Source of the DNA: a virus
Lineage: Duplodnaviria; Heunggongvirae; Uroviricota; Caudoviricetes
Direction: 5' to 3' (one strand)
Length of the DNA: 37,046 bases
Virus record (IMG/VR): IMGVR_UViG_2896601577_000003
The notes beneath the pieces are model-generated. The model worked only from the letters and a program-made list of their open reading frames with translations, did not search any database and was not told the DNA's origin. Numbering within the stretch: the stretch's first letter is position 1; every line of letters begins with the position of its first letter. Positions 5,427 through 29,680 of the stretch are shown here, piece by piece. The position numbers were made by a program, and so were the translations under genes.

Positions 5427-6534
5427 TTATTCTGTTTCTGCTATCCATTCCGGGATTTTTGCTTCAAGTTCAAGCTGCGTGGTAAAGCCGCTGTTATCAA
5501 TGGTGTGCTCGGCTTTTGCAATAATCCAGTCCTGATAATCAATCTCGCTTTTAAAGCCTGTCACTGTGCCATGCATTTCGGGATAGAGTTCTGCACGACC
5601 ACGCGCCAGCGTGATGGAGAATGATGCGGCTCCGCGTTGTAGCTGCTGCCACTTTGCCGCCGCTGCGCGTCTTGCTGCCTGCTCGTTCTGATAAGTCTTG
5701 CGTAACACAAACACGTTGCCTTCCGCACCTTCCATATAGTCGCCTTCCCGACTGCTACTTTTCTCCTTTTTGGGTTTTGGCGGTTTGCGGCGTTTCACGC
5801 TGACTTTTTTCTTTTTCCCGTAATTAAGATCAAGCCAGTAGGCGCGTACCCCCGTATACGCCTCGCGGTCAGCAATGCGGAACTGATGGCGATCGCCGCT
5901 GCTGCGTGTAATGGCGAACGAGGGCAACGGCTGCCCCTGTGCGTTCACGCCACCACCTGGCATGATGAATAACAGATTGCCGCTTTTTACCGTGGCGATT
6001 GCTCCCAGCATTTCCGCCATGCGCGTAAGAAAGGACATGTCGCTTTCTTCGGTCTGGTCGGCGTGGTCGATTTCGATATCCATCAGCATTTCGCTGATTT
6101 GCGGTTTCAGACCGTATCGATGAGCGATGGCGGATACCACACGCTCAACGGTCACATCATGCCAGGACACCTCACGTTTAACGTTAAATTCATCCCGAAA
6201 ATCTGCGCTTCTGGCTGAAACAGTCAGCCTGTCCGGCGGTCCTTCGTGAGCGATTTCATCAACAATGTAAGTGCCTTTTTCTGTCAGCGGTTCCCCTTTC
6301 CAGCCAATGAGAACCGTCAGACGCGGCCCCGTGGCGGTAGCTGCAACTGACCATCCGCATCATCCAGCGTGATGGTGAGCTGGTCCGCCTCAAATCCCCG
6401 GTTGTCGGTCAGTTACAGGCTCATCAGGCGCTCCGCCACGCCTGACAGCGTTTTACCCTCCGAGAGAATATCAAAATCCGGCATTTTCACGGGGGCCGTG
6501 CCCTGACTGAGCAATTGCATGGTGGTGTCGGTCA
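5427..6534 (-). pseudogene. D: P2 gpD-like tail protein; C-terminal 247 codons intact, N-terminal third frame-broken
   Basis: ORF 5427..6170 matches the P2 D C-terminal region as recalled (…ATVKSGNLLFI…ITRSSGDRHQFRIADREAYTGV…REGDYMEGAEGNVF…SGFTTQLELE…). ATG at 6534-6532 gives MTDTTMQLLSQGTAPVKMPDFDILSEGKTLSGVAERLMSL, then an in-frame TAA and frame changes before 6170. Confidence 0.8.
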
Positions 6535-6692
6535 TCTACTCCCTCCCTGTGCGGCATGGTCGCATGTGCGTGCGGAGGGGGTTACTGCTTTTTGTTGTCG
6601 CCGTGGCGGGAGAACGGCGCAGGGGTGAGATTACGCGCGTGGTGGGTGATGATTGTTGCTGAATCATTTAACGGATACAAGGGGCTGAAGCT

Positions 6693-7877
6693 ATGAGTGA
6701 AACTCGTTTTCATGGTGCCCGTGTTACGGAGAATACCGACCTGGTAACAGCGATTAACGATGTTGATTCCAGCGTTATCGGTATCGTGGCAACGGCGGAT
6801 GATGCGGACGCGAAGCTGTTCCCGCTGAACAAGCCCACACTGCTGACCCGCGTCAATGACGTGCTGGGAAAATGCGGGACAACGGGGACGCTTTATCGTG
6901 CGCTTAAGGCCATCGCAGACCAGGTGAGCACAAAGGTGATCGTCGTTCGCGTGGCTGAACACAAAGAAGAAGACGGAAAGACGCAGGATCAACTGGTTAT
7001 CGGTGGTTCTGAGGATGACGGCAGCTATACGGGGATGTATGCGCTGCTTGTTGCAGAGCAGGATGAAAGCATCGGATACCGTCCGCGTATTCTGGCCGCG
7101 CCGGAGCTGGACACGGAGGCGGTAACAAAATCCCTGTGCGTGATTGCAGATAAACTGCGCGCGTTTGTGTATGCCTCATGTCATGGCTGTAACACGATGG
7201 CCGAGGCAATTACCTACCGCCAGAAATTCAACGAACGTGAGGTGATGCTCTTATGGCCGGACTTCATCGCCTACAACCCGAAAAATGGCAAAAACGAAAC
7301 GTTCCCCGCGCCTGCCTATGCGTGCGGCCTTCGTGCGTACATTGACCATGAACAGGGATGGCACAAATCGCTGTCCAACGTTCCGGTTAAAAATGTGCTG
7401 GGGATGTCGAGGCATGTGTTCTGGTCGTTGCAGGCCGAAGACAGCGATGCCAACAGCCTCAACAACAAAGAAATCACGACCATTATTCGTCGCAACGGGG
7501 TCCGCTTCTGGGGTAACCGCACACCGGAAACGAACGCCTACATCTTTGAGGTGTATACCCGAACCGCACAGGTGCTGGCTGATTCAATTGCGGAAGCGCA
7601 GTTTGAAACCATCGACAGTCCACTGACGCCTGCGAATGTGAAGGATGTTATCAGTGCCATCAGGGCAAAACTGGATTCACTGGTGACTGCCGGGAAACTG
7701 ATTGGCGCGGAGTGCTGGTATGACGTGGTGGATAACAGCACCACGGATTTACGTCAGGGACGTGTGCGTATTCGCTACAAATATACGCCCGTTCCGCCAC
7801 TGGAAGACATGGAGCTTTACCAGACGTTTACTGATGAATACTTTGAACCCGCATTTGCGGTGCTGGGAGGTGCCTGA
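6693..7877 (+). CDS. FI: Contractile tail sheath protein (P2 FI-like)
   Basis: 394 aa; motifs …FPLNKP…RILA…LRAF…REVMLLWPDF…EQGWHKSLSNV…RFWGNRT…TRTAQV…YTPVPPLE… match the P2 FI sheath family. AAGGGG RBS upstream. Confidence 0.9.
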   Translation: MSETRFHGARVTENTDLVTAINDVDSSVIGIVATADDADAKLFPLNKPTLLTRVNDVLGKCGTTGTLYRALKAIADQVSTKVIVVRVAEHKEEDGKTQDQLVIGGSEDDGSYTGMYALLVAEQDESIGYRPRILAAPELDTEAVTKSLCVIADKLRAFVYASCHGCNTMAEAITYRQKFNEREVMLLWPDFIAYNPKNGKNETFPAPAYACGLRAYIDHEQGWHKSLSNVPVKNVLGMSRHVFWSLQAEDSDANSLNNKEITTIIRRNGVRFWGNRTPETNAYIFEVYTRTAQVLADSIAEAQFETIDSPLTPANVKDVISAIRAKLDSLVTAGKLIGAECWYDVVDNSTTDLRQGRVRIRYKYTPVPPLEDMELYQTFTDEYFEPAFAVLGGA

Positions 7878-8353
7878 TGGCTGTGCCAAAACATCTTCGC
7901 TTTTTTACGCTGTTTGTGGATGGTGAAAACGAAGTGGGTAATGTGACGTCCGTCACTCTGCCTAAGCTGACGCGCAAAACCGACAGCTACCGGGGTGGTG
8001 GCATGATGGGTGCGGTAAGTATTGATCTCGGTCTGGACGACTCCGCGCTTGATGCGAGCTTTGTCATGGGGGCGCAGTTCGTGAGCTGTTCCTTAAGTAT
8101 GGCGGCACGATTGACGGCACGCTGCTGCGTTTTGCGGGTGAATACTACACCGATGCAGAAAGCGACCTGTATGAAGTCGAAATGCGCGGACGTGTGACGG
8201 AAATTGATATGGGGGAAGCCAAACAGGGCGAAGCCACATCACACACTTACGCCATTAAAACACCTACTACAAGCTGAGTGTTAACGATCGCCCGTTGTGG
8301 GAGATTGACCTGCTGAACTTCATTTACCGGAAGGACGGGGTAATGACTCCAAC

Positions 8354-8731
8354 TTATTGATAGTGTTTTATGTTCAGATAATGCCCGATGACTTTGTCAT
8401 GCAGCTCCACCGATTTTGAGAACGACAGCGACTTCCGTCCCAGCCGTGCCAGGTGCTGCCTCAGATTCAGGTTATGCCGCTCAATTCGCTGCGTATATCG
8501 CTTGCTGATTACGTGCAGCTTTCCCTTCAGGCGGGATTCATACAGTGGCCAGCCATCCGTCATCCATATCACCACGTCAAAGGGTGACAGCAAGCTCATA
8601 AGACGCCCCTGCGTCGCCATAGTGCGTTCACCGAATACGTGCGCAACAACCGTCTTCCGGAGCCTGTCATACGCGTAAAACAGCCAGCGCTGGCGCGATT
8701 TAGCCCCGACGTATCCCCACTGTTCGTCCAT
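8354..8731 (-). CDS. insB: IS1 InsB (expressed as InsAB' by -1 frameshift)
   Basis: 125-aa [43 protein letters not shown]… matches IS1 InsB. Confidence 0.9.
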
Positions 8732-8775
8732 TTCCGCGCAGACGATGACGTCACTGCCCGGCTGTATGCGCGAGG

Positions 8776-9051
8776 TTACCGACTGCGGCCTGAGTTTTTT
8801 AAGTGACGTAAAATCGTGTTGAGGCTAACGCCCATAATGCGTGCAGTTGCCCGGCATCCAACGCCATTCATGGCCATATCAATAATTTTCTGGTGCGTAC
8901 CGGGTTGAGAAGCGGTGTAAGTGAACTGCAGTTGCCATGTTTTACGGCAGTGAGAGCAGAGATAGCGCTGATGTCCGGCAGTGCTTTTGCCGTTACGCAC
9001 CACCCCGTCAGTAGCTGAACAGGAGGGACAGCTGATAGAAACAGAAGCCAC
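8776..9051 (-). CDS. insA: IS1 InsA
   Basis: 91 aa [46 protein letters not shown]… matches IS1 InsA. Confidence 0.9.
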
Positions 9052-9219
9052 TGGAGCACCTCAAAAACACCATCATACACTAAATCAGTAAGTTGGCAGC
9101 ATCACCGAAGGACGGCAAGGACATTGTGCCCGATCGCATCCGTTCCGCGCTTGGGCTTGGCTGATAAGTAATATGCTGGCGGCGCAGTGCGTCGCCTCTG
9201 ACTGAAAAGGAGACAACAG

Positions 9220-9594
9220 ATGAAAGACATCGATACTGAAACCCGGAATAACACCGTGGCGGATAATGTGACGGCAGTTGAGGATATGGCTGTCGAACGT
9301 GGCGTAAAACTGACCCGACCAATTGAGCGTGGTGGCGAAAAAATCACGTATGTGGAGATCACCGGGGCTATTGAGCAGGCTGGATCCCTGCGTGGTCTGT
9401 CGCTGTCTGATGTGCTGAATCTGAAAGCGGATACCATGTTCACGCTGTTGCCTCGCGTGACCTCGCCACGACTGGATGAAGTGATGATTAAAAAAATGTC
9501 GTCACGCGATTTTATTCAGTTGTGCGCTGTGGCTGTAAATTTTATGAGCGAGCCAGACTCTGGCGCGAAGAGCGTGCAGGAGACGGCAGCGTAA
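9220..9594 (+). CDS. E: Tail assembly chaperone (P2 gpE-like)
   Basis: 124-aa ORF between the tube and tape-measure genes. A downstream ORF in the -1 frame (open from 9492 to 9758) overlaps its 3' end, the conserved chaperone frameshift arrangement. Confidence 0.8.
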   Translation: MKDIDTETRNNTVADNVTAVEDMAVERGVKLTRPIERGGEKITYVEITGAIEQAGSLRGLSLSDVLNLKADTMFTLLPRVTSPRLDEVMIKKMSSRDFIQLCAVAVNFMSEPDSGAKSVQETAA

Positions 9595-9758
9595 TCACCC
9601 TGGTGTGCTTTGAGCACATCGAAGATCTGGTGGCGGATATTGCCGCCATTTTTAACTGGTCGCCCGCCGAAATCTTCATGATGACGCCCTGCGAAGTGGT
9701 TAGCTGGCGTGAGCGAGCGGCACTTCGTAGCGGGAATGCAGACAATGAAGACTCTTGA
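9492..9758 (+). CDS. E' extension reached by programmed -1 frameshift (E+E' fusion)
   Basis: -1 frame is open from 9492. A run of seven A (9490-9496, …ATT AAA AAA ATG… in the E frame) lies exactly where the two frames overlap. Confidence 0.55.
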   Translation, partial: KNVVTRFYSVVRCGCKFYERARLWREERAGDGSVITLVCFEHIEDLVADIAAIFNWSPAEIFMMTPCEVVSWRERAALRSGNADNEDS

Positions 9759-12551
9759 TATCCGGGTCGCTTTCAGCGCCGTTGACAGGCTGACCCGGCC
9801 TGCCGAAAACGCCCGCCGCCTGATGGGGCAGTTTGGTGACTCCATCCAGCGAACGCAGGGGGCGATCAAAAATCTCGAGCGTCAGGCGCGATCATTTGAG
9901 CGCGCCCGTGACGCTGTCAGTAAAGCGGATGCGGGCATCGTGAAAGCACGACGCCAGCTTAACGCCCTTAATCAGTTACAACGCACGGGTACAGTGCTCA
10001 GCGAAAAACAACAAAAGCTGATGCAGCAGTTAAGCACCCGGCTTGAACGCCTGAATGAATCGCGCACACGGGAAATTCAGAAAATGCGGGAGCTTGGCGG
10101 AGAGCTGAAACGCCACGGCATTTCCCTGACAGGCAGCGATAACACCATCCAGCAGGCCATCAGACGCACCGAACAGTACAACAACCAGCTTGAACGCGAA
10201 CGGCAGGCGCTTGCGCGTGTAACACGGGCGCGTGAGCGGTATTCGCGCGCGCAGGAAACAGCGGGAAAACTGAAAACAGGTGGTGCGCTGGCAATTGGTG
10301 CGGCAGCGGCGGGCGGCTATGCTGCCGGGCGTTTTTTGCAGCCTGCGATCGGGTTCGGCAAAGAGATGTTCCGCGTTCAGGCACTGACGCGAATCGACCA
10401 GAACAGCCCGCAGTTTAAGGCGCTGCGTGAGCAGGCGTTAAAACTTGGCTCTGAAACGCAGTTCACCGCAGGCGATGCCGCCAGTGGACAGGCATTTCTT
10501 GCAATGGCTGGCTTTACACCACAGGCCATTCAGGCTGCGCTCCCTGGCGTACTGAGCATGGCAACGGCTGGCGGTATGGACCTCGGTGAGACGGCGGATA
10601 TTGGCTCAAATATTCTGACGCAGTTCGGTCTTTCTGCTGACCAGATGGACCGGGTCGGCGACACACTCACCGCAGCGTTTACCCGTACCAACACTGACCT
10701 TCGCGCACTGGGTGAAACCATGAAATATGCAGGTCCGGTGGCGGGTAAGCTGGGAATATCTCTGGAGCAGGCCGCAGCGATGGCGGGCGTGCTGGCGAAT
10801 ATGGGTATCAGGGGGAGTGATGCTGGTACGGCAATGCGTGCCAGCCTGGCTCGTCTGGCATCACCGCCAAAGGCGGCAGCAGAGGCGCTGAAAGAGCTTG
10901 GCGTGTCTGTCTCGGATGCCGGGGCAAAATGCGCCCGATGGAGGATGTGCTGGCTGACCTTTATAAAGCTACCCGCAAATACGGGGAAGTTGACCGGGTA
11001 TCGTTCTTTAAGGACATTGCCGGAGAAGAGGCTTTCACATCATTTATGGCCCTCGTTGATGCGGCAGGTGACGGCTCCTTACCCAAACTGAGAAAAGAAC
11101 TTGAAGGCGCGCGCGGTGAGGCTGAACGCACGGCAAAGGTTATGGCCAACAACCTTGACGGCGATCTGAAATCACTCAGCAGTGCATGGGAAGGGTTGCG
11201 CATCCGCATTGCAGATCTGATTGACGGTCCGCTGCGTTCTGTCACGCAGTGGCTCACGCGTGTGGTATCAAAGGTGACGGCGCTGGCGCAGGCCCATCCC
11301 GCACTGACGCGCCAGCTACTGATTGCAGGCGGTGCATTGCTGGCAATGACTGCAACGGTTGGCTCGTTGTCGCTGGCTATTGGTGTGCTTGCTGGCCCGC
11401 TGGCAAAACTGCGTCTTGGTTTTTCCCTCCTGACCGGATCAATGAATGCTGTCAGGGTTCTGCCAGCACTATGGGGAATGGTGACGGGTTCCGTTTCTTT
11501 ACTGGGAGGCGCTATCGGGGCGTTGTTCAGTCCGGTTGGTCTTATCGTGGCTGCGCTTGCCGGAGCTGCCGTTCTTATCTGGAAATACTGGGATCCCATC
11601 AGGGCATTTTTTGCCGGGGTGTTCAGCGGGATTATGGAAAGGCTGACCCCGTTGCGCGAAACATTTGAACGGTTTGGTCCTGTTTTTGACGCAATCGGGA
11701 GTGGGATCAGCCAGGTGTTTAACTGGTTTAAATCGCTGCTGTCACCGATGGAGTCCAGCAAGGAAACTCTGGATAAATGTACCAGTGCTGGCGAGATATT
11801 CGGTAACGTTCTTGGCGGTGCGTTACAACTTGTTCTGACACCTGCAAAAATGTTGCTGGATACGCTGGCGTGGATACTTGAAAAGCTTGGTGTGCTTCCG
11901 GATGAAGCGGAAAGGGCGCGCAAGAAAATCGAAGACGCACAGCGTGCGGCCATTCTTCAGGACAAGGTTGCCTTGCTTCAGGGGGACCTGGCGAAAATCA
12001 ATCCGCCGAAGCCTGTGGAAAATGGCAATGGCACCGGAGGTGATAACCCCAAAGACAATAAACCGCTCACAGACAGCAATACCGGTACGCTGCGCAGACT
12101 CAGCAAAATTGCTGATAACACAGGTAAGCTGGTTGAGGAGACGAAAAAACGCATTGGCCCCGGCGATATTGTCTTTAAAAACCTGCCCCGAGCACTTGCT
12201 GTTCGTGGGGAGTGGCAGGAGCGGAAGATTGCGCAGGTCAGTAAGCCTGCCCCCGCAATTAATATCACACCCGTGGTTCCGGCTCCGCTGCCTCCGGCGC
12301 TGGTCCCTGTTGTTGCGGCCAGCTCCCGCCCGGTGGCGGAGGCTATACGATCTCCAGTGGCATCAGTTCCTGTAACTTCCCGTAACCGGGAGCCTGTTGC
12401 CTCCGGATTTGGTGGTGAAATTCATGTTCATCTGCATAACGTTGTTACGCAGAATCCCCGCGAACTGGCGAAACTGGTCGGTGAAATGGTCAGGGCAGAA
12501 ATGGAACGGCGCGCCCGTGCCGGGCGTGGCTGTTTTTACGATAAAGATTGA
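9736..12551 (+). pseudogene. T: Tail tape-measure protein (P2 gpT-like), split into two overlapping ORFs by a frame break
   Basis: ORFs 9709..11091 and 10929..12551 together give an ~810-aa Ala/Gly-rich protein with a hydrophobic central segment, typical of tape-measure proteins. The frames switch between about 10900 and 11090. Confidence 0.85.
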
Positions 12552-12557
12552 GGAGTC

Positions 12558-13052
12558 ATGGCCATGATGATGATCTACGGCATGTTTGTTTTTGAGCTGC
12601 GCACGCTGCCGCATCAGCAGTTACAGCAAAACAAAAGCTGGCGGCATGTGAAAAATGAACGCGTTAACCGTTCAGCAAGCTGGCAGTATATCGGTGCAGG
12701 TGATGATCGCATCGTTCTTTCTGGTGTGCTTTATCCTGAAATTACAGGTGGCGAAGTGTCGCTGTCGCTGCTGACCACGCAGGCGTATACAGGACGACCC
12801 TGGCCTTTGATTGATGGCGTCGGGCAGATTTACGGCATGTATGTCCTGACTGAAACGAATACGACCCGCTCCGAGTTTGATCGCTACGGTAAGGCGAAAA
12901 AGATAGAATTTTCACTGACTCTTGAACGCTGTGATGAGGATTTGCGGGAGCGCCTGCAATCCTCATCGTTCAGTGATATGCTGTCCGGCTTCAAAGATAA
13001 GGTGACATCATCTCTTAACAGCGCGGCCAGTTCAGTTAAAGGGCTGTTCTGA
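12558..13052 (+). CDS. U: Tail protein (P2 gpU-like)
   Basis: 164-aa ORF immediately after the tape-measure gene; sequence is consistent with the P2 gpU family as recalled. Confidence 0.8.
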   Translation: MAMMMIYGMFVFELRTLPHQQLQQNKSWRHVKNERVNRSASWQYIGAGDDRIVLSGVLYPEITGGEVSLSLLTTQAYTGRPWPLIDGVGQIYGMYVLTETNTTRSEFDRYGKAKKIEFSLTLERCDEDLRERLQSSSFSDMLSGFKDKVTSSLNSAASSVKGLF

Positions 13053-13065
13053 TTTAACACAAAAA

Positions 13066-13097
13066 CCGCTAATGGTCAGATTAGCGGTTTTCATTTT
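13066..13097. terminator. Bidirectional hairpin between convergent U and invertase genes
   Basis: Perfect 12-bp inverted repeat AAAACCGCTAAT / ATTAGCGGTTTT with a 6-nt loop, flanked by T-rich tracts on both strands. It overlaps the invertase stop codon. Confidence 0.5.
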
Positions 13098-13697
13098 CCT
13101 GAGTCTGCCCGGTTGTTTCTTCAGTCTGTATATCGCCTACAGGGTGATAACGATAAATCGTCGATGTGCCAATGCCGTAAATTATTGCCAGTTGTTTTCT
13201 GTCGTGCCCGTTTTTGATTAGCCTTGCTATTTGCTCATGCTGTTCTTTTGTCAGCTTCGGTCGACGTCCGCCTGTGCGCCCCTTGCGCGCGCTGCCGCCA
13301 GCCCGGCCAGTGTACGTTCAACAATTAATTCACGTTCCATTTCAGCCAGGGCACCCATCACGTGGAAGAAAAAACGCCCCATTGGAGAAGATGTGTCTAT
13401 GCTGTCGGTCAGACTGCGAAAATTAATCCCTCGCTCCCGTAGTTCCCCGACGAGAGAAATCAGATGTTTCATGCTTCGCCCGAGGCGATCCAGTTTCCAG
13501 ACAACCAGCGTGTCACCTTTTTGAAGGCGCTTTAAAGCGCGTTTTAATCCCGGTCGGTCTGTCTTTGTCCCGCTTAATTTATCTTCAAATATTTGTTCAC
13601 ATCCTGCACAAACAAGAGCGTTTCGTTGCAGGTCTGTATTCTGGTCATTTGTTGATACCCTTACATAGCCAATCAGCACACTGAATCTCCCGTCCAA
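13081..13697 (-). CDS. Serine DNA invertase (Hin/Gin/Pin/Cin family), one frame break near the catalytic-domain/HTH junction
   Basis: N-terminus …LIGYVRVSTNDQNTDLQRNAL…DTLVVWKLDRLGRSMKHLISLVGELRERGINFRSLTDSIDTSSPMGRFFFHVMGALAEMERELIVERT… is typical of this family. The C-terminal HTH (GRTGGRRPKLTKEQHEQIARLIKNGHDRKQLAIIYGIGTSTIYRY) is read in a shifted frame from about 13255. Confidence 0.85.
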
Positions 13698-13733
13698 AAG
13701 CGCAAATCATGCCATGCAGGCCAGAAACGGCCA

Positions 13734-13759
13734 TTATTTAAAACCTCGGTTTACAGGAA
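13734..13759. repeat. gix/hix-like 26-bp crossover site (left boundary of the invertible tail-fibre cassette)
   Basis: TTATTTAAAACCTCGGTTTACAGGAA closely resembles the Mu gix site as I recall it, and is a 21/26 inverted match to the site at 17187-17212. Confidence 0.7.
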
Positions 13760-14620
13760 ACGGTAAACAGGGCTGGTAACGCCGTGCAAAAAAATGGCGA
13801 TACCTTGTCCGGTGGGCTTACTTTTGAAAATGACTCAATCCTTGCCTGGATTCGAAATACTGACTGGGCGAAGATTGGATTTAAAAATGATGCCGATGGT
13901 GACACTGATTCATACATGTGGTTTGAAACAGGCGACAACGGCAATGAATATTTCAAATGGAGAAGCCGCCAGAGCACCACAACAAAAGACCTGATGACGC
14001 TGAAATGGGATGCACTAAATATTCTTGTTAATGCTGTCATTAATGGCAGTCTTGGAGTTGGTTCGACGAATGCGTTAGGTGGTAGCTCTATTGTTCTTGG
14101 TGATAATGACACCGGATTTAAACAGAATGGAGACGGTATTCTGGATGTTTATGCTAATAGTCAGCGTGTATTCCGCTTTCAGAATGGAGTGGCTATTGCT
14201 TTTAAAAATATTCAGGCCGGGGATGGTAAAAAATTCACGCTATCCAGCTCCAACAACTTCACAAAGAATGCAACGTTTAATTTATGGGGTGCTTCAACCC
14301 GTCCAGTAGTTGCAGAGTTAGGCGATGAGGCAGGATGGCATTTCTATAGCCAGCGAAATACAGATAACTCGGTAATATTTTCTGTTAACGGTCAGATACA
14401 GCCCAGCAACTGGGGGAATTTTGATTCACGCTATGTAAAAGATGTTCGCCTGGGTACGCGTGTTGTTCAATTGATGGCGCGTGGTGGTCGTTATGAAAAA
14501 GCCGGACACGCAATTACCGGATTAAGAATCATTGGTGAAGTAGATGGCGATGATGAAGCCATCTTCAGACCAATACAAAAATACATCAATGGCACATGGT
14601 ATAACGTCGCACAGGTGTAA
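13760..14620 (+). CDS. Alternative tail-fibre C-terminal variable domain (Sv), currently in the silent orientation
   Basis: Open frame from the crossover site; ends …IQKYINGTWYNVAQV, parallel to the other variable domain (…IQYCINGTWYNAGSI). Followed by a tail-fibre assembly gene. Confidence 0.7.
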   Translation, partial: TVNRAGNAVQKNGDTLSGGLTFENDSILAWIRNTDWAKIGFKNDADGDTDSYMWFETGDNGNEYFKWRSRQSTTTKDLMTLKWDALNILVNAVINGSLGVGSTNALGGSSIVLGDNDTGFKQNGDGILDVYANSQRVFRFQNGVAIAFKNIQAGDGKKFTLSSSNNFTKNATFNLWGASTRPVVAELGDEAGWHFYSQRNTDNSVIFSVNGQIQPSNWGNFDSRYVKDVRLGTRVVQLMARGGRYEKAGHAITGLRIIGEVDGDDEAIFRPIQKYINGTWYNVAQV

Positions 14621-14623
14621 ATT

Positions 14624-15151
14624 ATGCAGCATTTAAAAAATATTAAGTCCGGAAATCCAAAAACAAAAGAACAATATCAGCTAACAAAGAATTTTGATGT
14701 TATCTGGTTATGGTCCGAAGACGGTAAAAACTGGTATGAGGAAGTAAATAACTTTCAGGACGACACCATAAAGATTGTATACGACGAAAATAATATTATT
14801 GTTGCCATAACCAAAGATGCCTCAACGCTTAATCCCGAAGGCTTTAGTGTCGTTGAGATTCCAGATATAACAGCCAATCGTCGCGCCGATGATTCAGGGA
14901 AGTGGATGTTTAAGGACGGAACTGTGGTTAAGCGGATTTATACAGCAGACGAACAGCAACAACAGGCCGAATCACAAAAGGTCGCGTTGCTTTCTGAAGC
15001 TGAAAGCGTTATTCAGCCACTGGAACGCGCTGTCAGGCTGAATATGGCGATGGATGAGGAACGCACACGACTGGAGTCATGGGAACGCTACAGCGTTCTG
15101 GTCAGCCGTGTGGATACAGCAAATCCCGAATGGCCACAAAAGCCTGAGTAA
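14624..15151 (+). CDS. Tail-fibre assembly protein (Tfa/U type) for the silent fibre variant
   Basis: 175 aa, N-terminus [40 protein letters not shown]…; paralogous to ORF 15180..15713 on the opposite strand. Confidence 0.8.
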
Positions 15152-15179
15152 AAATTAAGGCCCAATATCGGGCCTTCTC

Positions 15180-15713
15180 TCATTCTGGTTGTTCGGGAAA
15201 CGTTACTGGCAGGCTGGAGGTGTCTGTAGATTCGACTTTCTGCGCATAGAGCATCCACTCGGTTAATTTTTGTTTATTCTCGTCGGAAATGATGCCCAGC
15301 CGTAGCTGTGAGTCCCATAGCTGGGTTTTATCCCTGACAAGTTGCAACAGGCTTTGCTTTTCATTTTCCGCTTGTTGCCTCTGCTCTTCCTCGGTATAAG
15401 TTCGCTTTATCACTACGCCATCTTTGAACAACCATTTCCCCGAAATATCAGCCCGGCGATTTGCTGTAATATCAGGTAATTCAACGACGCTTGCGCCTTC
15501 CGGATTAATTGCTGAAACATCCTTTTCAATACAAATAATAACGCCGTTATGGTCATAGACCATTTTCAAAGTGTCTGGCTGGAAATTCTTTTGTTCCTCA
15601 TACCAGTTTTTTCCATCATCTGAATAAAGCCATTTGATGTTAAATTGCTTTGTTAGCTGGTATTGCTCTTTTGTTTTAGGGTTGCCAGCAGTAATGTTTT
15701 TTAAGTGCATCAT
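15180..15713 (-). CDS. Tail-fibre assembly protein (Tfa/U' type) for the currently joined fibre variant
   Basis: 177 aa [40 protein letters not shown]…; convergent with its paralogue, as in Mu/P1-type invertible fibre cassettes. Confidence 0.8.
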   Translation of the reverse strand: MMHLKNITAGNPKTKEQYQLTKQFNIKWLYSDDGKNWYEEQKNFQPDTLKMVYDHNGVIICIEKDVSAINPEGASVVELPDITANRRADISGKWLFKDGVVIKRTYTEEEQRQQAENEKQSLLQLVRDKTQLWDSQLRLGIISDENKQKLTEWMLYAQKVESTDTSSLPVTFPEQPE

Positions 15714-15715
15714 CG

Positions 15716-17186
15716 TTAAATACTCCCCGCGTTATACCACGTCCCATTAATGCAATACTGAATTGGCCTTGCCTGTGTTGTATCAATTAATTCATCACGG
15801 TTTCCGTTAACTGAACCCGTAACGACATAACCTGACCTGTCAGACCAGCCGGGACCATTCCATGTCTGAACAGATGACAGACCGCCAAGGCGAATACCTG
15901 TAATAAACCTTGAGTTACATTCTGCCCGCGTATATGCACCAACATCTCCCGCTGAAGGTTTTCGTGTCGTGGTATAGAAATCTGACCAACCTAATTCAAC
16001 CCGGTAATGACTCCAACTTATTGATAGTGTTTTATGTTCAGATAATGCCCGATGACTTTGTCATGCAGCTCCACCGATTTTGAGAACGACAGCGACTTCC
16101 GTCCCAGCCGTGCCAGGTGCTGCCTCAGATTCAGGTTATGCCGCTCAATTCGCTGCGTATATCGCTTGCTGATTACGTGCAGCTTTCCCTTCAGGCGGGA
16201 TTCATACAGTGGCCAGCCATCCGTCATCCATATCACCACGTCAAAGGGTGACAGCAAGCTCATAAGACGCCCCAGCGTCGCCATAGTGCGTTCACCGAAT
16301 ACGTGCGCAACAACCGTCTTCCGGAGCCTGTCATACGCGTAAAACAGCCAGCGCTGGCGCGATTTAGCCCCGACGTATCCCCACTGTTCGTCCATTTCCG
16401 CGCAGACGATGACGTCACTGCCCGGCTGTATGCGCGAGGTTACCGACTGCGGCCTGAGTTTTTTAAGTGACGTAAAATCGTGTTGAGGCTAACGCCCATA
16501 ATGCGTGCAGTTGCCCGGCATCCAACGCCATTCATGGCCATATCAATAATTTTCTGGTGCGTACCGGGTTGAGAAGCGGTGTAAGTGAACTGCAGTTGCC
16601 ATGTTTTACGGCAGTGAGAGCAGAGATAGCGCTGATGTCCGGCAGTGCTTTTGCCGTTACGCACCACCCGTCAGTAGCTGAACAGGAGGGACAGCTGATA
16701 GAAACAGAAGCCACTGGAGCACCTCAAAAACACCATCATACACTAAATCAGTAAGTTGGCAGCATCACCATTCAACCCCATAACCATCACGAGCCGACCT
16801 GTAGGAAATGCCACCATTTTTATAATTCACACGGAATTGTACGGCAGGACAGCTACCAGCATTTATATTAAAGTGAAGAATTAATGTAGATGCACCACCA
16901 ATCAGGGCGTTATATGCACTACTATCCCAATTCCATCCAATGGATGTATCACCATTAACAGTATTACCTGTTTGTCGGAGTGCAAATGCATTGACATTTT
17001 TGGCACTAATTGAAATATCGCTAGAACCATCAAAACCAACTCCAGCAATTTTTCGTGCTGTTTTCAGCTTTGTTGCAGTAGCGGCATTGCCGGACAGTTC
17101 CCAGAAAGGCCACCGCTGAATGTTTGTCGATTGGTCCAGGTATTCGCTGTACTGAGTAACGGTATTTTCTCCCCGCTTGTGCCGAG
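15716..17186 (-). pseudogene. Tail-fibre variable C-terminal segment (Sv') joined in frame to H, interrupted by IS1 copy 2
   Basis: Reading on from H through the crossover site gives …AKNVNAFALRQTGNTVNGDTSIGWNWDSSAYNALIGG…DGYGVE | IS1 | …GWSDFYTTTRKPSAGDVGAYTRAE…IQYCINGTWYNAGSI, stop at 15718-15716. Confidence 0.7.
16003..16769 (-). mobile_element. IS1 copy 2 inserted inside the invertible tail-fibre cassette
   Basis: Same termini as copy 1. Perfect 9-bp target-site duplication ATTCAACCC at 15994-16002 and 16770-16778. InsB intact (16018..16395); insA frame-broken at a C-run (ORFs 16440..16667 and 16532..16714). Confidence 0.95.
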
Positions 17187-19008: not shown

Positions 19009-19896
19009 TGCGTCCACCTTCGCTGATGGTGAATGACTCACAGCGCGCCGCCTGTATGTCGCTGATGGCCATATTCTGTGTGGGTTCGATTATCTCCACG
19101 CGTTGCACACCGTGCACATGCAGTGCGGCAGCAATGGCGGACAACGCCACGTCCTGACCGATAAGCCCTGCTCAGCCAGCCACTTCCTGAACGACGATTC
19201 AGCCGCGGCCAGAATAGGTTCGGATTCCGGGCCGGGGTAAAAGTACAGTTTTGCATTCAGCCGCCATGTCACGATTCTGGCACTCTGTACGGTCAGGCGG
19301 TCGGCCACCGGGCGGGTATCCTCTGCATTCAGAACGGCGCGAACGGTATTAAGCAACGCCTCCGTTGCTGTGCCGTCGCCCTCAGTGGACAGGATGGAAA
19401 CCGTCACGTTGGCCGGAGACGGGCTGATGGCCTGCGCATCGCGTACCAGACCGCTGGCGCTGCGTGCAAAATACTCGTATGCACCTGACGGGCCAGCAAC
19501 ACTCAGACCGTCATATGCCCGTTGCGCCCGTAGTCTCAGCGAGGTGTCACTTTCCATCACTGCATCGGTGGTATCCGTTGCCGGAGTGATAACCAGGCGC
19601 TTTGTGTTCATATTGCCCGCGAGGTTGTCCAGGTCTGTCCCGGCGCTGTGGCTTAGCATGCAGGCGCGTGCACCCTCATTGACCCGCTGGCGTAACAGCA
19701 TTTCACGAAACGACATGGTTTGAGCGATAACGTTAAGGGGTTCCGATTCCAGCTCCAGCGCGGCGGAAACGGCTTCACGCTGTTCGGCGGGATAGGACGC
19801 AATCATCATGGCCTTTGTGTCAGCCAGAATTGCCTCAAAGTCAGGCTCCGCGATGATGGCGGGTTCCGGTAACTGTGAAAGGTCAACGGCAGGCAT
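19001..19896 (-). CDS. J: Baseplate protein (P2 gpJ-like), one frame break near 19172
   Basis: ORF 19090..19896 (268 aa). The C-terminus …IGQDVALSAIAAALHVHGVQRVEIIEPTQNMAISDIQAARCESFTISEGGRNE* is read in a shifted frame after a G-run; stop at 19003-19001. Confidence 0.85.
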
Positions 19897-19899: not shown

Positions 19900-20250
19900 T
19901 TACTCCCTCAGCGTGATGGTTAATTCAACATTCTGCATGGTCTGCATGACAGTGCCCGACAGCGTCACCCCGGCGCGGCCTCCTGCCTTCCAGACAACGT
20001 CGATAGCGTCCAGGGCAATGCGGGGTTCCCATCGTGTCAGCGCAATCACGGCAGCACTCATGCATTGCAGACGCGTGGTGTTATTCATGGGTTCGTCAAT
20101 CAAATCAGGCACAAGGCTGCCATATTCCCGTCGCATAACCCGGCTTGCCAGCGGGGTGGTCAGGATGTCCCTGACTGACTGTTTCAGGTGCTCCATATCG
20201 TTCAGGTTTCCCGTTCCGTCCGGGTTCATTCCTGTGTAGCGGGTTGTCAC
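19900..20250 (-). CDS. W: Baseplate wedge protein (P2 gpW-like)
   Basis: 116 aa, GTG start overlapping the V stop (GTGA); position and size match P2 W. Confidence 0.8.
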   Translation of the reverse strand: MTTRYTGMNPDGTGNLNDMEHLKQSVRDILTTPLASRVMRREYGSLVPDLIDEPMNNTTRLQCMSAAVIALTRWEPRIALDAIDVVWKAGGRAGVTLSGTVMQTMQNVELTITLRE

Positions 20251-20827
20251 TGCGGGCCTCCTGTCGAATCGCTGCCACCTTTAACGCCACCGTGTTTATG
20301 CGTATGCACTGTGATGCCGTTTGAGGTGAAATTGCCGCCGCTGTGCGTGATATTGCCGCTCATCTTTCCCCTTTTGTGACGTCAAGCGTCGCCGTTCTCA
20401 GAAGGTCTGTGCATTCCACGACGGGCGTATCCAGTGTCACGCTGACGGATGCCTGCAGGGTGGCTGTTTTCATGCCGCTGGCGCTCAGTGCGCCTGCGTC
20501 CGCGTCGTAGCGGAACACCGCGCCATCCGGCGCGCTGACCACGATTTCTTTCAGGCTTTTGCCGGGGGCCGGAATGGCATCACTCCACAGGCTGCCAATT
20601 ATCATGGCGGTTTCCGGGTTGCCGCCAATGCAGGCAATTACCACCTGTTCGCCTGGTGATGGCGGCAGCCACACATTGAAGGCTCCCGCGCGAGTGGTGT
20701 TCCAGCGCAGCCAACCTGTTTCCAGTTCGCCGCTGCGAACGCGCACGCGCCAGGACTTCTCATCAACTTCAGAGATGATCCCGGTGCGGATGATATTGCT
20801 CAGTAGCCGCATGAGTTCTGCGCTCAC
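20247..20827 (-). CDS. V: Baseplate spike protein (P2 gpV-like), one frame break near 20368
   Basis: ORF 20360..20827. The C-terminal ~38 codons (…MSGNITHSGGNFTSNGITVHTHKHGGVKGGSDSTGGPQ*) are read in a shifted frame after a C-run. Confidence 0.85.
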
Positions 20828-22196: not shown

Positions 22197-22464
22197 CTTT
22201 TGCAATATCGTTGCGTAGCTGTTCACGTCTTACCTCTCCGTCCTGATTGCGTTGCTGATTTTCCACGCGGAGTTGCGCCAGCACCTGCTGCATATCCTGT
22301 ACCCCGGCGCTGATGATATTCAGGGTGTCGGCGGTACTTTTCAGGGTGCTGGCCTGCGCTTCGTTTCTGGCGTTCTCCCGGCCCAGCGACCACGACAGAC
22401 GCATGGATGTTCCCCATCCGGCAGTCAGAAGGAAAGCGACGCCAAGCGTGGGCCAGAGCTTCAT
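22057..22464 (-). CDS. lysB: Rz-like inner-membrane spanin (LysB-like)
   Basis: Start MKLWPTLGVAFLLTAGWG (N-terminal TM) at 22464 overlaps the endolysin stop (ATGA), followed by a coiled-coil-like region. Confidence 0.7.
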   Translation of the reverse strand: MKLWPTLGVAFLLTAGWGTSMRLSWSLGRENARNEAQASTLKSTADTLNIISAGVQDMQQVLAQLRVENQQRNQDGEVRREQLRNDIAKDECAHALPDARFTDRLRRHAERATASAVSPAYTADADHTGNASPLP

Positions 22465-22852
22465 GCCGGATAGGCTCCGTGTGGTAACTGAAAATGCGGT
22501 CCGTCTTTCAGGGTCTTCCAGTCGCCGCCCCATTCCACCGGAATATTCAGTTCCCGGCTGGCCTGTCTGAATGCTGCTGCGATTTTTTCGTACAGCGGCC
22601 ATTCCCATGACACCTGGCTGCCGATATAAGCCACAACATCCACGGCATGCCCCGTAAGGTGGCGGCTGTTCATGGTCTGGCTCTTACCCGTGGCCACCAG
22701 TTGCTTCTGGCGGTAACGGCTGCGCAACCCTTCGGTGATACCAAAATCCACTTCCGAGATTTCCAGTGCCGTCGGGTCACTTTCACCAGATCAGGATTTA
22801 CACCCTGCAAATTCTTTTCGCTCCGGCTGCTGAATTTAAATGTGTTGCTCAT
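22461..22852 (-). CDS. Endolysin, M15-family L-alanyl-D-glutamate peptidase type (T5-Lys-like); one frame break near 22770
   Basis: MSNTFKFSSRSEKNLQGVNPDLVKVT… then, after a G-run, …EVDFGITEGLRSRYRQKQL…SRHLTGHAVDVVAY…DGPHFQLP. The H-x3-G-x-A-x-D and D-x2-H motifs fit zinc M15 peptidases. Confidence 0.75.
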
Positions 22853-24818: not shown

Positions 24819-25860
24819 TTAGCTGTCGGCGAACTTCAGGCCAGTAACCATCGCGCACTTGCCATAGTCTTCAACGACATAAGCGTCATTGATGGACTGG
24901 TAGGTGGCGATGCGGTTGTATTCCGGCTCGTCTTTCATCAGGCGACGCATTGAACCTTTCTGCCAGTAAATCGACAGGTTGTTGAACGAGGTGATCAGCA
25001 TCGTTGCATCCGGGAAGAACGGCGCAAGGAACACGCCCAGCCCGCCAATGGTGCGCGATGACAGGATGAGCTGCCCGGCGAGTAATTCCGCATTGGGATT
25101 CTGGCCGCTGATGCTGTTCAGCACGGGCAGACGCAGCGAGTTAAACAGGTTGCGCCCCATAATCACCACGAGGTCGTCAGCTTCCTTGTGCCATTCATCC
25201 AGCAGGGATGAACGCGCGTCCTGTACCAGTGCATCAGCGTTCGCATACTTACCCGCGTGCGCCACGGTGTTGTCCATGTTGCGGGAGGTCAGCGTCACGT
25301 CATTCATAACGCGTTCGCTGGCGTCGGTTCTGATGTGCTCCAGCCAGCCCACGTTAACGTCCTGAAGCAGCTTGTTGGTGCTGAAGTTGGACTCATCCGC
25401 GTGAGACGTGCCGTTGAAACCGATCATGATGCGGTCAAGCGCCACCTGTCGGGCAATCTGTGCGCTGATGCGGGACTGAAAATCAGGGTGTGCCGACCAG
25501 GCATCAAGCTGCGGATACGAAATAAACGTGTCGTAGTTCACCTGTTCACACTGATATTTGCGGTTTTTCAGATCAACCACGTTATTCGGGTTACGGCGTT
25601 TTGTGCCGTCATAACTGGTATTCGTGCGCGCAATCGGTCCTGTGGTATCTAGGAGGATTTTTTCACCTTTCTGGTCGGTCACGCCGATCACGTTATTTTT
25701 TTCGTAAATTCGGTACTTTCCTTTGAGGCGTTTTCAAAACGCTGCTGCACCGCGGGTTCGCGACACCAGTGCAGATACCGGGATATTATTAAGCGACGCC
25801 TGCTGCGCCATATAGCAACCCAGCTTGTTGCGGGTAATATCTGACATCACCAGATTCATA
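24819..25860 (-). CDS. N: Major capsid protein (P2 gpN-like), N-terminal frame break(s) around 25690-25760
   Basis: ORF 24819..25691 matches the P2 N C-terminal two-thirds (…IMIGFNG…LLQDVNVGWL…DALVQDA…DLVVIMGRNL…LSIYWQKGSMRR…YVVEDY…). The N-terminus MNLVMSDITRNKLGCYMAQQ… is read from 25860 in another frame. Confidence 0.85.
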
Positions 25861-26752: not shown

Positions 26753-26873
26753 GATGGCAAAGCGTAACAGGCTGATACAAAGGGCTTTTGTTGTAAGAAA
26801 ACGGCCAGAACAGAGGGTTAAGGAGAACAGTTTCGCGCGCGGGTAATCTTCCTGTAATTACTCAGGGGGAGCA

Positions 26874-28623
26874 ATGATTCAGGACGCTTTTGTGCGCCAG
26901 CGTGCGCGGCAACTTTACTGGCAGGGTTATCCGCCCGCAGAAATATCACGTCTGATGGGAATAAACCCGAACACGATTTATGCGTGGAAAAAACGTGACC
27001 AGTGGGATGAAACGCCACCCGGGCAGCGTGTCACGCAGTCCATCGATGCGCGCCTCATCCAGCTTACTGAAAAACAGAATAAAACAGGCGGTGACTTTAA
27101 GGAAATAGACCTGCTGACCCGGCAGCTTAAAAAGCTGCATGATGGCCAGCCGGATGTGATGGCCGCAGGAAAGAAAGGCCGGGCGAAAAAACTCAAAAAT
27201 CATTTCACGCCGGAACAGATTGCCGCACTGCGGGAAAAAATCATCAGCAGGCTGGAGTGGCATCAGCGGGGCTGGTTTGACTCCCTGACCCTTTGCAGGG
27301 AAGCCGGGATACGTAACAGGATGATCCTGAAATCCCGACAGATTGGGGCGACCTGGTATTTTGCACAGGAAGCACTGCTGATGGCGCTGCGTGACGATGT
27401 GGCGCAACCTTACCAGCGTAACCAGATTTTTTTGTCTGCGTCGCGTCGTCAGGCGTTCCAGTTTAAAAGCATTATTCAGAAGGCGCGGCTGAAGTTGATG
27501 TGGAGCTGAAAGGGGGCGATAAAATCATCCTCTCCAACGGCGCAGAGCTGCATTTTCTCGGCACTTCTGCTGCGTCGGCACAGTCCTATACGGGCAATTT
27601 TTATTTTGATGAATTTTTCTGGGTCAGTCGCTTTGCTGAACTGCGCAAGGTGGCTGGCGCTATGGCAACCCTCAGCGGACTGCGGCGCACCTACTTCTCC
27701 ACGCCATCCACCGAAACGCACGAGGCATACGCCTACTGGAACGGCGACCGCTGGAACGAGAAAAAGGCCTCGCATAAACGCCAGCGTTTTTCTGTGGACT
27801 GGAAAACGCTGCATAACGGGCTTATCTGCCCTGACCGGACGTGGCGGCAAATTGTCACGCTGGAAGATGTGGTTAATCACGGCTGGAAACACACCGATAT
27901 CGACGAAATTCGTGATGAAAACACCGAAGACGAGTTCCTCAATCTCTATATGTGCGAGTTTGTCCGCGAAGGGGAATCGGCATTTAACCTGAATATCCTG
28001 ATTGGCTGCGGCGTTGACGGATACGACGACTGGAAAGACTGGAAACCTTTTGCTCCCCGCCGATGGGGAATCGTCCGGTATGGATTGGGTATGACGCAAA
28101 CGGCAGCAGTGGCAACGGCGACAGCGGCGCTGTGTCCGTGGTGGTTCCTCCGTCTGTTCCTGGTGGCCGTTTTCGAACGGTGGAGACGCGACGCGTTCAG
28201 GGGCTGGAGTTTGAAGAACAGGCCAGAGTCATTGAAGAGTTCACGTGTCGCTACAACGTGGAACACATCGGCATTGATGTGACGGGCGGGAACGGGGAGG
28301 CTGTTTATCAGATAGTGAAACGGTTTTTCCCTGCCGCTATTCCGTACACCTTCACGCTGTCATCAAAACGGTCGCTGGTACTGAAAATGCTGCAAATAAT
28401 GCGTGCCGGGCGGTGGGAATACGATCGCGCCGAACGCGAGCTGGTCGCGGCCTTTAACGCCGTGCGTAAGGTGAAAACACCGGGCGGCTTTATCACTTAC
28501 GAAACGGACCGAGCGAGGGGGATCAGCCACGGCGACCTTGCGTGGGTAACCATGCTTGCTGTCATTAACGAACCGATTGGCGGCGAAGGAGAAAACGAGC
28601 GTTTCACGGTTATGGAGTTCTGA
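26874..28623 (+). CDS. P: Terminase large subunit (P2 gpP-like), split into three overlapping ORFs by two frame breaks
   Basis: ORFs 26874..27509, 27500..28282 and 28063..28623 together give ~583 aa with terminase features. Breaks lie near 27500 and between about 28070 and 28280. Confidence 0.85.
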
Positions 28624-29680
28624 TGAGCAGAAAAAATAAAAAAGTGCGCATGAGTTCACGCATTGATCTCGCTGATGCGCTCAGGAAAGAATCATCGCTC
28701 AGTGCATTCACATTTGATGGTCCTTATCGCCTGACCGGGCATGACCTGCTGGACAATATGTACTGTGCTGATAACGGGCGGTGGTATGAACCCCGGTGGA
28801 CTGGTACGGTCTGGCAAGAGCTGCCCGGCAAACGTCTTGGCATCAGTCTGCGCTTTACTTTAAGCGCAATGTATTGCTCGGTTGCTACATCCCGCACCCG
28901 CTGCTTTCCCGGTAGGATTTCTCGGCGCTGGCGCTGGCGCTGGCGCTGGACTGGTTTGTGTTCGGTAACGCATTCCTTGAGCTTCGAAGCAATATGCTCG
29001 GCGAACCGCTTAAATTACGGCACGCCCTGGCGAAATACATGCGACGCGGAAGCGATCTTGAATCATGGTGGTATGTGCAGGATGGCAAGGATGCGTTTCA
29101 GTTTCGCCCAGGCAAAGTGTGTCACCTGATGAATCCTGACATTAACCAGGAAATCTACGGCATGCCGGAATATCTCGGCGCATTACTCTCGGCCAGCCTG
29201 TCTCATTCGGCGGACATGTTCAGAAAACTGTATTACGACAACGGATCCCACGCCGGGTGCATCATCTACATCGGTGCCGCGCAGGTAAACCGCGAAAGCA
29301 TGGACTCCCTGAAAGAAACGCTACAGGGTGCGCGTGGTGGTGGTGCGTTTAAAAACGTGCTCATTCATGCGCCCAACGGGGGCAAAGAGGGGGTGCAAAT
29401 TTTGCCGTTCCAGCAGATCACCGCAAAGGATGAGTTCATGAATGTTAAGGCGGCATCCCGTGATGATGTGCTGGCTGCGCACCGCGTTCCGCCGCAACTG
29501 ATGGGGGCGATGCCGGGTGAAAAAAGTGCGTTTGGTGATGTGGAGAAGGCCGCGCGGGTTTACGCAATTAACGAGCTGATGCCCGTCATGGAGGCCATGA
29601 AGCACATCAATGACTGGCTTGGCGAAGAGGTGATCCGCTTTAACCCTTACGCACTGTTAGACATCCAGCCCACATCCTGA
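28623..29680 (+). CDS. Q: Portal protein (P2 gpQ-like), split into two overlapping ORFs
   Basis: ORFs 28623..29129 and 28958..29680; start overlaps the P stop (TGATG). Frame break between about 28800 and 28915. Confidence 0.85.
28924..28947 (+). repeat. (GGCGCT)x4 hexanucleotide tandem repeat inside the portal gene
   Basis: Four perfect tandem hexamers, encoding (AL)4 in the downstream portal frame and RWRWRWRW in the upstream ORF frame. Confidence 0.85.

Follow-up and report, generated by a model that had tools for sequence, protein, structure and literature searches.

Organization of the prophage locus and inventory of its frame breaks

The window, that is, the whole 37,046-nucleotide stretch of DNA analysed here, is a P2-like prophage remnant from a Shigella boydii-lineage chromosome, in which it adjoins ihfA/pheT; chromosomal genes are absent from the window itself, and its sequence is identical to CP026867.1, of assembly GCA_002949895.1, where checked (20,173 bases compared). 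A colinear set of P2 late genes, together with an integrase and ogr, was recognized by tblastn with 34 reference proteins, from reference annotations and from Pfam labels, and runs in the order ogr, D, FI, FII, E, E', T, U, invertible fibre segment, G, H, I, J, W, V, S, R, lysis genes, X, L, M, N, O, P, Q. The same late order, at 97.5–99.5% identity, is found in enterobacterial P2-like prophages, for which the UTI89 and GDSC2BY4G prophages served as references. Compared with prophages of this type, however, the early region of the window is rearranged or deleted and has been invaded by IS elements, and a cargo ORF of 1039 aa lies between ogr and D. The integrase and two of the insertion sequences are located as follows.

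36069–37046, + strand: prophage integrase, intact as far as the window extends (325 aa in the source record)
402–1728, + strand: IS2 (1327 bp) in ogr, with a contraction of a CAGC repeat (4 bp) at 617 and a G>T change (TAA) at 771
34761–36061, + strand: IS629 (1308 bp against an expected 1310), with one base missing at 34765 and another at 34837 (C5>C4), the second of which breaks orfA

Two copies of IS1 lie in FII and H. The preliminary description had regarded the IS insertions as real, and the same IS2 and IS1 insertions indeed occur in several other assemblies; the insertion of IS1 copy 2 in H is common to UAUR01, CP026762 and CP026797. It had also described the two IS2 lesions as possibly real. 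Both were found at the positions given; the contraction is probably real because it is common to two other assemblies (only CP026762 and CP026872), and the stop-generating 771T, private among 12 assemblies, could be either real or an error. IS1 copy 1 carries a private 8610T, insA of IS1 copy 2 has lost one base at 16667 (C4>C3), and the IS629 deletion at 34837 is also present in the CP026872 copy. Just upstream of IS629, a deletion at 34721 (G5>G4) is common to CP026795, CP026797 and PTES01.

Frame breaks were mapped by tblastn with 34 proteins of an intact E. coli relative and by aligning the window base by base with two E. coli references, lesion states were compared across 16 other assemblies of the same prophage, and the occurrence of truncated proteins was counted on independent contigs from NCBI, ENA and Logan. 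Comparison with intact P2-like prophages of E. coli shows 21 single-base deletions in the window and not one insertion in coding sequence; each of the 21 one-base indels that lie in genes or close to them is a deletion. The genes broken are D, FII, T, the invertase, H, I, J, V, the endolysin, N, P, Q, the cargo gene, IS1 copy 2 and IS629. Every break reported from the first inspection was recovered, and four others had been overlooked (cargo gene 4864, I 18541, early-region 33703 and intergenic 29998). The 18 deletions outside IS elements were sorted into four real ones, 12 probable artefacts and two ambiguous ones (28791 and 34721), and the initial view that the breaks represent errors rather than decay thus stands for about two thirds of them (12/18) and fails for the remainder.

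Lesions shared across the Shigella lineage

The one-base deletions at FII 8068, FII 8257, N 25695 and P 27484, the 11-bp deletion at N 25758, and the nonsense mutations at D codon 41 and Q codon 98 are genuine pseudogene mutations, because they are found in independent assemblies of different technologies and strains, in a manner that fits the phylogeny. The genes concerned are the following.

5430–6535, − strand: gene D, with the real nonsense codon 41 (TCA>TAA, 6413–6415) and a private one-base deletion at 6326
7877–9161, + strand: gene FII, with real one-base deletions at 8068 (G6>G5) and 8257 (A5>A4) and IS1 copy 1 inside (8339–9106)
24822–25859, − strand: capsid gene N, lacking 11 bp at 25758 and one base at 25695, both losses real
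26874–28620, + strand: terminase gene P, with a real one-base deletion at 27484 (CC>C) and a private one at 28060 (C3>C2)
28623–29680, + strand: portal gene Q, with the real nonsense codon 98 (CAG>TAG, 28913–28915) and a one-base deletion at 28789–28791

Truncated proteins that identify the D, FII, N and P lesions are present on between 114 and 953 independent contigs, namely the 106-aa FII fragment on 953 (including ABB66010.1 of S. boydii Sb227), the 290-aa ORF of N on 690, the 40-aa fragment of D on 643 and the 211-aa fragment of P that results from the 27484 deletion on 114; a 41-aa fragment of N is found on 24. The lesion states of FII equal those of the window in 14 of 14 Shigella assemblies, the D nonsense codon is present in every Shigella assembly covering it, and the N, P and Q lesions are likewise identical wherever they are covered. 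The two N lesions were considered as mutually compensating (−1 and −11 giving −12), and this was ruled out by a stop in the shifted stretch between them, which ends the 41-aa fragment. The 247-aa ORF of D and the 96-aa ORF of the endolysin were rejected as lesion markers, since both are downstream ORFs with internal starts and are non-diagnostic.

The Sanger-sequenced genome of Sb227 (CP000036) carries this prophage at the same site beside ihfA/pheT; the IS2 insertion is shared, and the FII frameshifts and the D nonsense codon are identical to those of the window. The two FII breaks, which had been put forward as pinpointed examples of sequencing error, are therefore both real. Unlike the window, Sb227 has neither of the two IS1 insertions and none of the private one-base deletions at the sites that its locus covers (4864 to 19166); this locus stops at about 19.7 kb, and N, P and Q lie outside its coverage. 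As for Q, the gene also contains an in-frame (GGCGCT)n expansion at 28924–28935, and its deletion at 28789–28791, which occurs in the otherwise clean CP041513 as well, is ambiguous between a real event and an error. With these shared lesions, the prophage is truly defective.

Probable assembly artefacts

The deletions at 4864, 6326, 10921, 13279, 17100, 18541, 19166, 20368, 22769, 28060, 29998 and 33703 are probably artefacts; nine of them are strictly private and three more are common only to other error-laden long-read assemblies, and private substitutions do not accompany them. In addition to D and P, they affect the following features.

2060–5178, − strand: cargo ORF of 1039 aa, split by a one-base deletion at 4864 (G5>G4)
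9745–12551, + strand: tape measure gene T, one-base deletion at 10921–10925 (G5>G4)
13084–13679, − strand: invertase of the invertible tail-fibre segment, one-base deletion at 13279–13283 (C5>C4)
15719–18476, − strand: tail fibre gene H, with IS1 copy 2 inside (16003–16769) and a one-base deletion at 17100–17103 (C4>C3)
18482–19008, − strand: gene I, one-base deletion at 18541–18545 (C5>C4)
19004–19896, − strand: gene J, private one-base deletion at 19166–19169 (C4>C3)
20250–20812, − strand: gene V, private one-base deletion at 20368–20372 (C5>C4)
22464–22852, − strand: M15 endolysin, private one-base deletion at 22769 (C3>C2)
29998–30002, no strand: intergenic site, private one-base deletion (C5>C4)
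33375–34010, − strand: ORF of 211 aa, in which a private one-base deletion at 33703 (C3>C2) fuses a 95-aa ORF and a 112-aa DUF4761 ORF

The cargo ORF, which has no significant Pfam or PADLOC match, is intact in 9 of 10 loci, the exception being CP026731 with breaks of its own, and its deletion is common only to the error-laden CP026872, PTES01 and PSSS01. Similarly, the T deletion is common only to PTES01, with the 935-aa protein intact in 11 other Shigella assemblies, and the deletions at H 17100 and at 16667 in IS1 copy 2 are common only to CP026797. The J site is C4 in 16 other Shigella assemblies. The invertase is intact (199 aa) in 12 of 12 other Shigella assemblies, and its deletion recurs in several unrelated E. 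coli assemblies, while that of gene I, probably an artefact at a recurrent site, is common to CP026797, CP026872 and PSSS01 and to two Logan contigs of diverged prophages. The private D deletion at 6326 lies outside any homopolymer. Moreover, the diagnostic fragments of T, H, J, V, the second P break (186 aa) and the early region are each found on one contig only, which is the source genome, and the 211-aa ORF, probably a false fusion, forms a one-member cluster. Genes T, I, J and V, the invertase, the endolysin and the cargo gene are probably intact in the actual strain.

Inherited decay and probable consensus error as sources of the lesions

Among the original runs of the window, 7 of 29 G/C 5-runs are shortened compared with 0 of 152 A/T runs of at least five (p = 1.4e-6), and 13 deletions stand against 0 insertions (p = 2e-4). 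The branch leading to the window has 9 private deletions and neither a substitution nor an insertion, against 39 substitutions to 2 deletions in the pooled clean assemblies (Fisher p = 2e-8); the single private substitution outside IS elements, at 25665, is synonymous and thus of no use as a strain marker in searches with proteins. The nearest relative, CP026866, which has nine derived SNPs in common with the window, differs from it over 13.7 kb by 3 substitutions and 7 indels.

A census of runs, outside which the C3>C2 deletions (22769, 28060 and 33703) fall, found shortened G/C 5-runs in the window (6/28), CP026797 (6/28), CP026872 (9/19), PTES01 (5/28) and PSSS01 (3/18), and none in Sb227, AERO01, AMKA01, UAUR01, UAUO01, CP026762, CP026811 and CP041513. 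The frequency in the window rises with run length (2/86 for G/C 4-runs versus 6/28 for 5-runs), its A/T runs are unaffected, and lengthening is seen in no assembly, the ambiguous 28791 site excepted. Error-laden assemblies overlap at 1–2 sites per pair, which equals the chance expectation (about 1–2), and the sharing of deletion sites conflicts with the SNP phylogeny. On the + strand, C5 runs are hit more often than G5 runs (5/8 versus 2/21; p = 0.008), an asymmetry whose cause is unexplained. In CP026872, a C4>C3 deletion truncates the essential gene pheT. The 5.1-kb housekeeping flank in the source genome (ihfA, pheT, pheS, rplT, rpmI) has no private lesion, but it is uninformative because it holds only three G/C runs of at least five (P about 0.45 under the error model).

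The shared or private status of the lesions, the absence of accompanying substitutions and a pattern made up of deletions only, specific to the assembly and dependent on run length, are direct observations, and we infer consensus under-calling as the cause of that pattern. Very probably, two layers of lesions are superimposed, lineage decay and consensus errors left uncorrected in a PacBio assembly without polishing. The first layer is real decay inherited across the lineage, comprising the insertions of IS2 in ogr, of IS1 in FII and H and, within the early region, of IS629 and an element of the IS3 family, as well as the nonsense codons of D and Q, the one-base deletions of FII (two), N and P, and the 11-bp deletion of N. 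In the second, the consensus caller would have lost one base from roughly one G/C 5-run in five, some 2% of the 4-runs and a few of the 3-runs, which would have produced the false breaks in the cargo gene, T, the invertase, I, J, V and the endolysin, the extra breaks in D, H and P, and the false fusion of two early ORFs.

Were all frame breaks real, they would represent the neutral build-up of homopolymer slippage in a dead prophage of this strain. Shigella genomes are rich in pseudogenes, slippage in homopolymers is the commonest genuine frameshift mechanism, the prophage had already lost function through IS elements and shared lesions, and a few sites recur in unrelated assemblies. Such a history is nevertheless very improbable, since the private branch holds 9–13 deletions with no substitution or insertion, the opposite of the clean sisters (39:2), with about 21% of G/C 5-runs and no long A/T run hit; the same pattern, at other sites, recurs in same-series assemblies, whereas equally dead copies of the prophage in Sanger, draft and clean assemblies lack it, and site sharing contradicts the SNP phylogeny. 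A mismatch-repair-deficient mutator, as strain or stored stock, might be invoked, given that mismatch-repair loss strongly raises one-base run indels in E. coli mutation-accumulation work and that these historical strains were stored for decades. However, transitions would be raised at least as much as indels, with both +1 and −1 changes, whereas synonymous 25665 is the only private substitution outside IS elements, insertions are lacking and A/T runs are untouched; the same defect would also be needed separately in the assemblies of several non-sister strains, and this explanation is barely credible.

The recurrence of the 18541, 13279 and 28791 deletions in unrelated or otherwise clean assemblies could suggest that G/C 5-runs are hypermutable, contingency-like sites at which shared deletions are parallel real events. 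For these three sites, the Logan runs concerned are ERR10498788, SRR15989306 and SRR36641798. Hypermutability of this kind is highly improbable, as the overlaps between assemblies match independent random error, eight assemblies of the same prophage have no such deletion at any of 13–28 runs, 5-runs are far shorter than known contingency tracts, and no run is lengthened. It is likewise very improbable that slippage recurs, as at a true hot spot, in just some of these runs (invertase 13279, I 18541, Q 28791); if it did, Shigella and E. coli would have lost these genes many times over in independent events, and some of what is counted here as error would be genuine parallel decay.

The reading as decay overlaid by consensus error also agrees with the sequencing background. 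The accession of the source falls inside the block CP0267xx–CP0268xx, which passages of PMC7819885 and PMC10132075 cite to Kim et al. 2018 as 'generated with PacBio sequencing'. This series is described as 59 historical Shigella genomes, PacBio-only, and the accessions flanking CP026867 (CP026774–CP026878, CP026832) are cited to it, reportedly without short-read editing; the accession block suggests that CP026867, which is not named in the literature searched, belongs to the same series. These unpolished genomes have been criticised in print for 'numerous indels in the homopolymers' (Yassine et al. 2022, PMC8795385), and a published cgMLST comparison reported that PacBio and Illumina genomes of one and the same strain differed at 9–584 alleles, to which the rate in the window (about 0.35 per kb) corresponds at the upper end of the implied range. 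Like the window, the PacBio RS II assemblies of Kim et al. 2018 show assembly-specific single-base homopolymer deletions and false frameshifted genes. The artefact lesions of the window are confined to G/C runs, whereas the sister assembly CP026731 also loses bases from A/T runs, and the lesion at 6326 departs from the homopolymer pattern.

The finding is an ordinary but useful caution for annotation, with practical rather than conceptual value. False frameshifts in CP026867 and its sister PacBio assemblies inflate pseudogene counts, cgMLST alleles and gene-content comparisons. At this locus, seven genes (the cargo ORF, T, the invertase, I, J, V and the endolysin) would be misannotated as pseudogenes, and one spurious fusion gene would enter the annotation. 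A blanket dismissal of homopolymer breaks as error would also be wrong: FII, N and P carry real breaks, and D and Q carry real nonsense codons.

Prophage structure and inventory of lesions

The P2-like prophage of the 37 kb window has its top complete E. coli matches in NZ_CP136025 (98.5% identity) and UTI89 (98.1%), and its late genes are colinear with both. No difference from the locus of CP026867.1 (GCA_002949895.1, 4,607,924 bp) was found over 20,173 common bases. The prophage, with the identical IS2 insertion, sits at the ihfA/pheT site in many Shigella assemblies, of which most are S. boydii according to their protein names. The alignment revealed that four IS elements break up the prophage; they are listed with two further genes:

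1-141, minus strand, hok/gef-family toxin gene (46 aa), directly beyond the ogr end, same as in the E. coli reference
402-1728, IS2, within ogr
2060-5178, minus strand, AT-rich cargo ORF (1039 aa) between ogr and D, labelled 'MFS transporter' in RefSeq
8339-9106, IS1 copy 1, within FII
16003-16769, IS1 copy 2, within H
34761-36061, IS629

A tblastn search with 34 proteins from an intact E. coli relative, together with indel enumeration against two E. coli references, confirmed all frame breaks listed in the preliminary description and revealed four that it had overlooked, in the cargo ORF (4864), gene I (18541), the early region (33703) and intergenic DNA (29998). The one-base deletions number 21 (18 outside IS elements and 3 within), while the coding sequence of the window has no one-base insertion relative to the two references. 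In addition, N carries an 11-bp deletion, the GGCGCT repeat of Q is expanded in frame by 12 bp, and nonsense codons occur at D codon 41 (TCA>TAA) and Q codon 98 (CAG>TAG). Counted by original length, 7 of 29 G/C 5-runs are shortened versus 0 of 152 A/T runs at least 5 bases long (p = 1.4e-6), a pattern far from chance; site 6326 lies outside any homopolymer. Among the window's G/C 5-runs outside IS elements, shortening affects 5 of 8 C5 runs on the plus strand versus 2 of 21 G5 runs (p = 0.008), an asymmetry absent from the sister error-laden assemblies.

The 4-bp contraction and G>T stop previously described in IS2 are both present. The contraction (617) also occurs in CP026762 and CP026872 and is absent from CP026866, while the G>T at 771 (IS2) and the T at 8610 (IS1 copy 1) are private substitutions within multi-copy IS elements. 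These three states may stem from gene conversion among IS copies, from repeat reads mixed in the consensus, or from real mutation.

Distribution of lesions among independent assemblies

Broken genes were translated from the natural start to the premature stop, the out-of-frame tail being diagnostic of each lesion, and the fragments were matched as exact sequences among ~15 billion proteins. The fragments split into a widely distributed group and a one-contig group.

Table. Contigs carrying each truncated protein
FII, 106 aa: 953, including Sanger-sequenced S. boydii Sb227 (ABB66010.1), ENA and Logan assemblies
N, 290 aa: 690
D, 40 aa: 643
P, 211 aa: 114
N, 41 aa: 24
T, H, J and V, second P fragment, fused early ORF: one contig each, that of the source genome

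With five fragments as queries, the prophage was retrieved from 16 more Shigella assemblies, for which difference matrices and a per-lesion state table defined three lesion classes. Lesions 8068, 8257, 25695, 25758 and 27484, as well as the D and Q stop codons, are common to every Shigella assembly having the region, and those at 6326, 13279, 19166, 20368, 22769, 28060, 29998 and 33703 are private to the window. The third class occurs elsewhere only in few long-read assemblies, none of them nearest to the window: 4864 in CP026872, PTES01 and PSSS01; 10921 in PTES01; 17100 and 16667 in CP026797; and 18541 in CP026797, CP026872 and PSSS01. The states at 28791 (shared with CP026795, CP026872, CP041513 and PTES01) and 34721 (shared with CP026795, CP026797 and PTES01) are split among assemblies and ambiguous. 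The nearest relative, CP026866, has nine derived SNPs in common with the window, from which it is separated in the first 13.7 kb by just 3 substitutions but by 7 indels.

Table. Private substitutions, deletions and insertions per assembly, IS elements left out
Window (CP026867): 0, 9, 0
CP026797: 0, 9, 0
CP026731: 0, 14, 0
CP026872: 2, 6, 0
PTES01: 2, 9, 0
Sb227: 8, 0, 0
CP026866: 8, 0, 0
CP026766: 14, 2, 1

Private deletions are absent from UAUR01, CP026762, AERO01, AMKA01 and CP041513. The clean assemblies together hold 39 substitutions and 2 deletions, and their contrast with the window gives Fisher p = 2e-8. A census of every homopolymer shows that shortening depends on assembly and run length: G/C 5-runs are shortened in 6 of 28 covered in the window, 6/28 in CP026797, 9/19 in CP026872, 5/28 in PTES01 and 3/18 in PSSS01, and in none in eight assemblies, the Sanger genome among them. 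In the window, 2 of 86 G/C 4-runs and no A/T runs are shortened; no assembly has lengthened runs, the ambiguous 28791, where the majority state is arbitrary, aside. Given these per-run frequencies, chance alone should make two error-laden assemblies share one or two sites, as was observed, and the apparent homoplasy therefore needs no biological explanation.

Consensus error and real mutation as proposed causes

For 12 of the 18 non-IS one-base deletions, taken as a set rather than lesion by lesion, PacBio consensus error is the best explanation; of the other six, four are real and two undecided. The earlier attribution of the frame breaks to sequencing or assembly error instead of decay thus holds for about two thirds of them, which are deletion-only and private or shared by few assemblies, and fails for the four real, lineage-wide deletions. 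Real mutation, as neutral decay or a mismatch-repair mutator, does not fit, since it would give substitutions at least as frequent as indels, +1 as well as -1 changes, and altered A/T runs too. The I deletion (18541) also occurs in two Logan contigs from diverged prophages, the invertase deletion (13279) in several unrelated E. coli assemblies, and the Q deletion (28791) in the otherwise clean CP041513. In other strains, therefore, real mutation may also recur at a few of the runs.

Consensus error also accords with the inferred membership of CP026867 in a PacBio series, based on its accession block: passages of PMC7819885 and PMC10132075 credit flanking accessions (CP026774 to CP026878, plus CP026832) to Kim et al. 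(2018), while our literature search found no paper naming CP026867. Yassine et al. 2022 (PMC8795385) describe many homopolymer indels in genomes of this series, for which short-read correction is said to be lacking. In the sister assembly CP026872, a C4>C3 deletion cuts the essential pheT from 795 to 757 aa (~15895-18168 in its locus L040; coordinate 15918 in locus L039), which suggests that G/C-run deletions of the series strike essential genes too. In CP026867, the 5.1 kb of housekeeping genes flanking the prophage is free of private lesions; with three G/C runs of at least 5 bases, this stretch has too few to discriminate.

Variable segments and state of the prophage

P2-like phages often bear accessory or defence cargo at the position of the 1039-aa ORF, which is unbroken in most Shigella carriers and has no significant Pfam or PADLOC match (top, SLAC1, E = 0.014, below cut-off). 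The tail-fibre segment beside the invertase (13730-17216) is inverted in CP026866, Sb227, CP026731 and UAUO01 relative to the window; the segment has therefore switched during the history of the lineage, and its invertase (199 aa, unbroken in all assemblies but the window) was recently active. The Q hexanucleotide (GGCGCT)n at 28924-28935, with 2, 3 or 4 copies depending on the assembly and a copy number that disagrees with the SNP tree, behaves like a small VNTR. One deletion removed the holin-to-N block from several sister strains (loci L013, L015, L016, L019-L022; ~locus 8962-9846, equivalent to 22.8-26.7 kb of the window), so that a 294-aa ORF with a GPO_N and a Peptidase_M15_4 domain now runs from the beginning of scaffold gene O into the endolysin; the block is retained in the window, CP026866 and CP026872.

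The prophage is truly defective, its other real lesions being the IS insertions, two nonsense codons and the 11-bp deletion. In the real strain, the cargo ORF, T, invertase, I, J, V and endolysin are probably intact, and the early ORF of 211 aa is probably a false fusion. Assembly error and prophage decay are both already well known, so that there is little novelty here; the finding is useful in practice for annotation.
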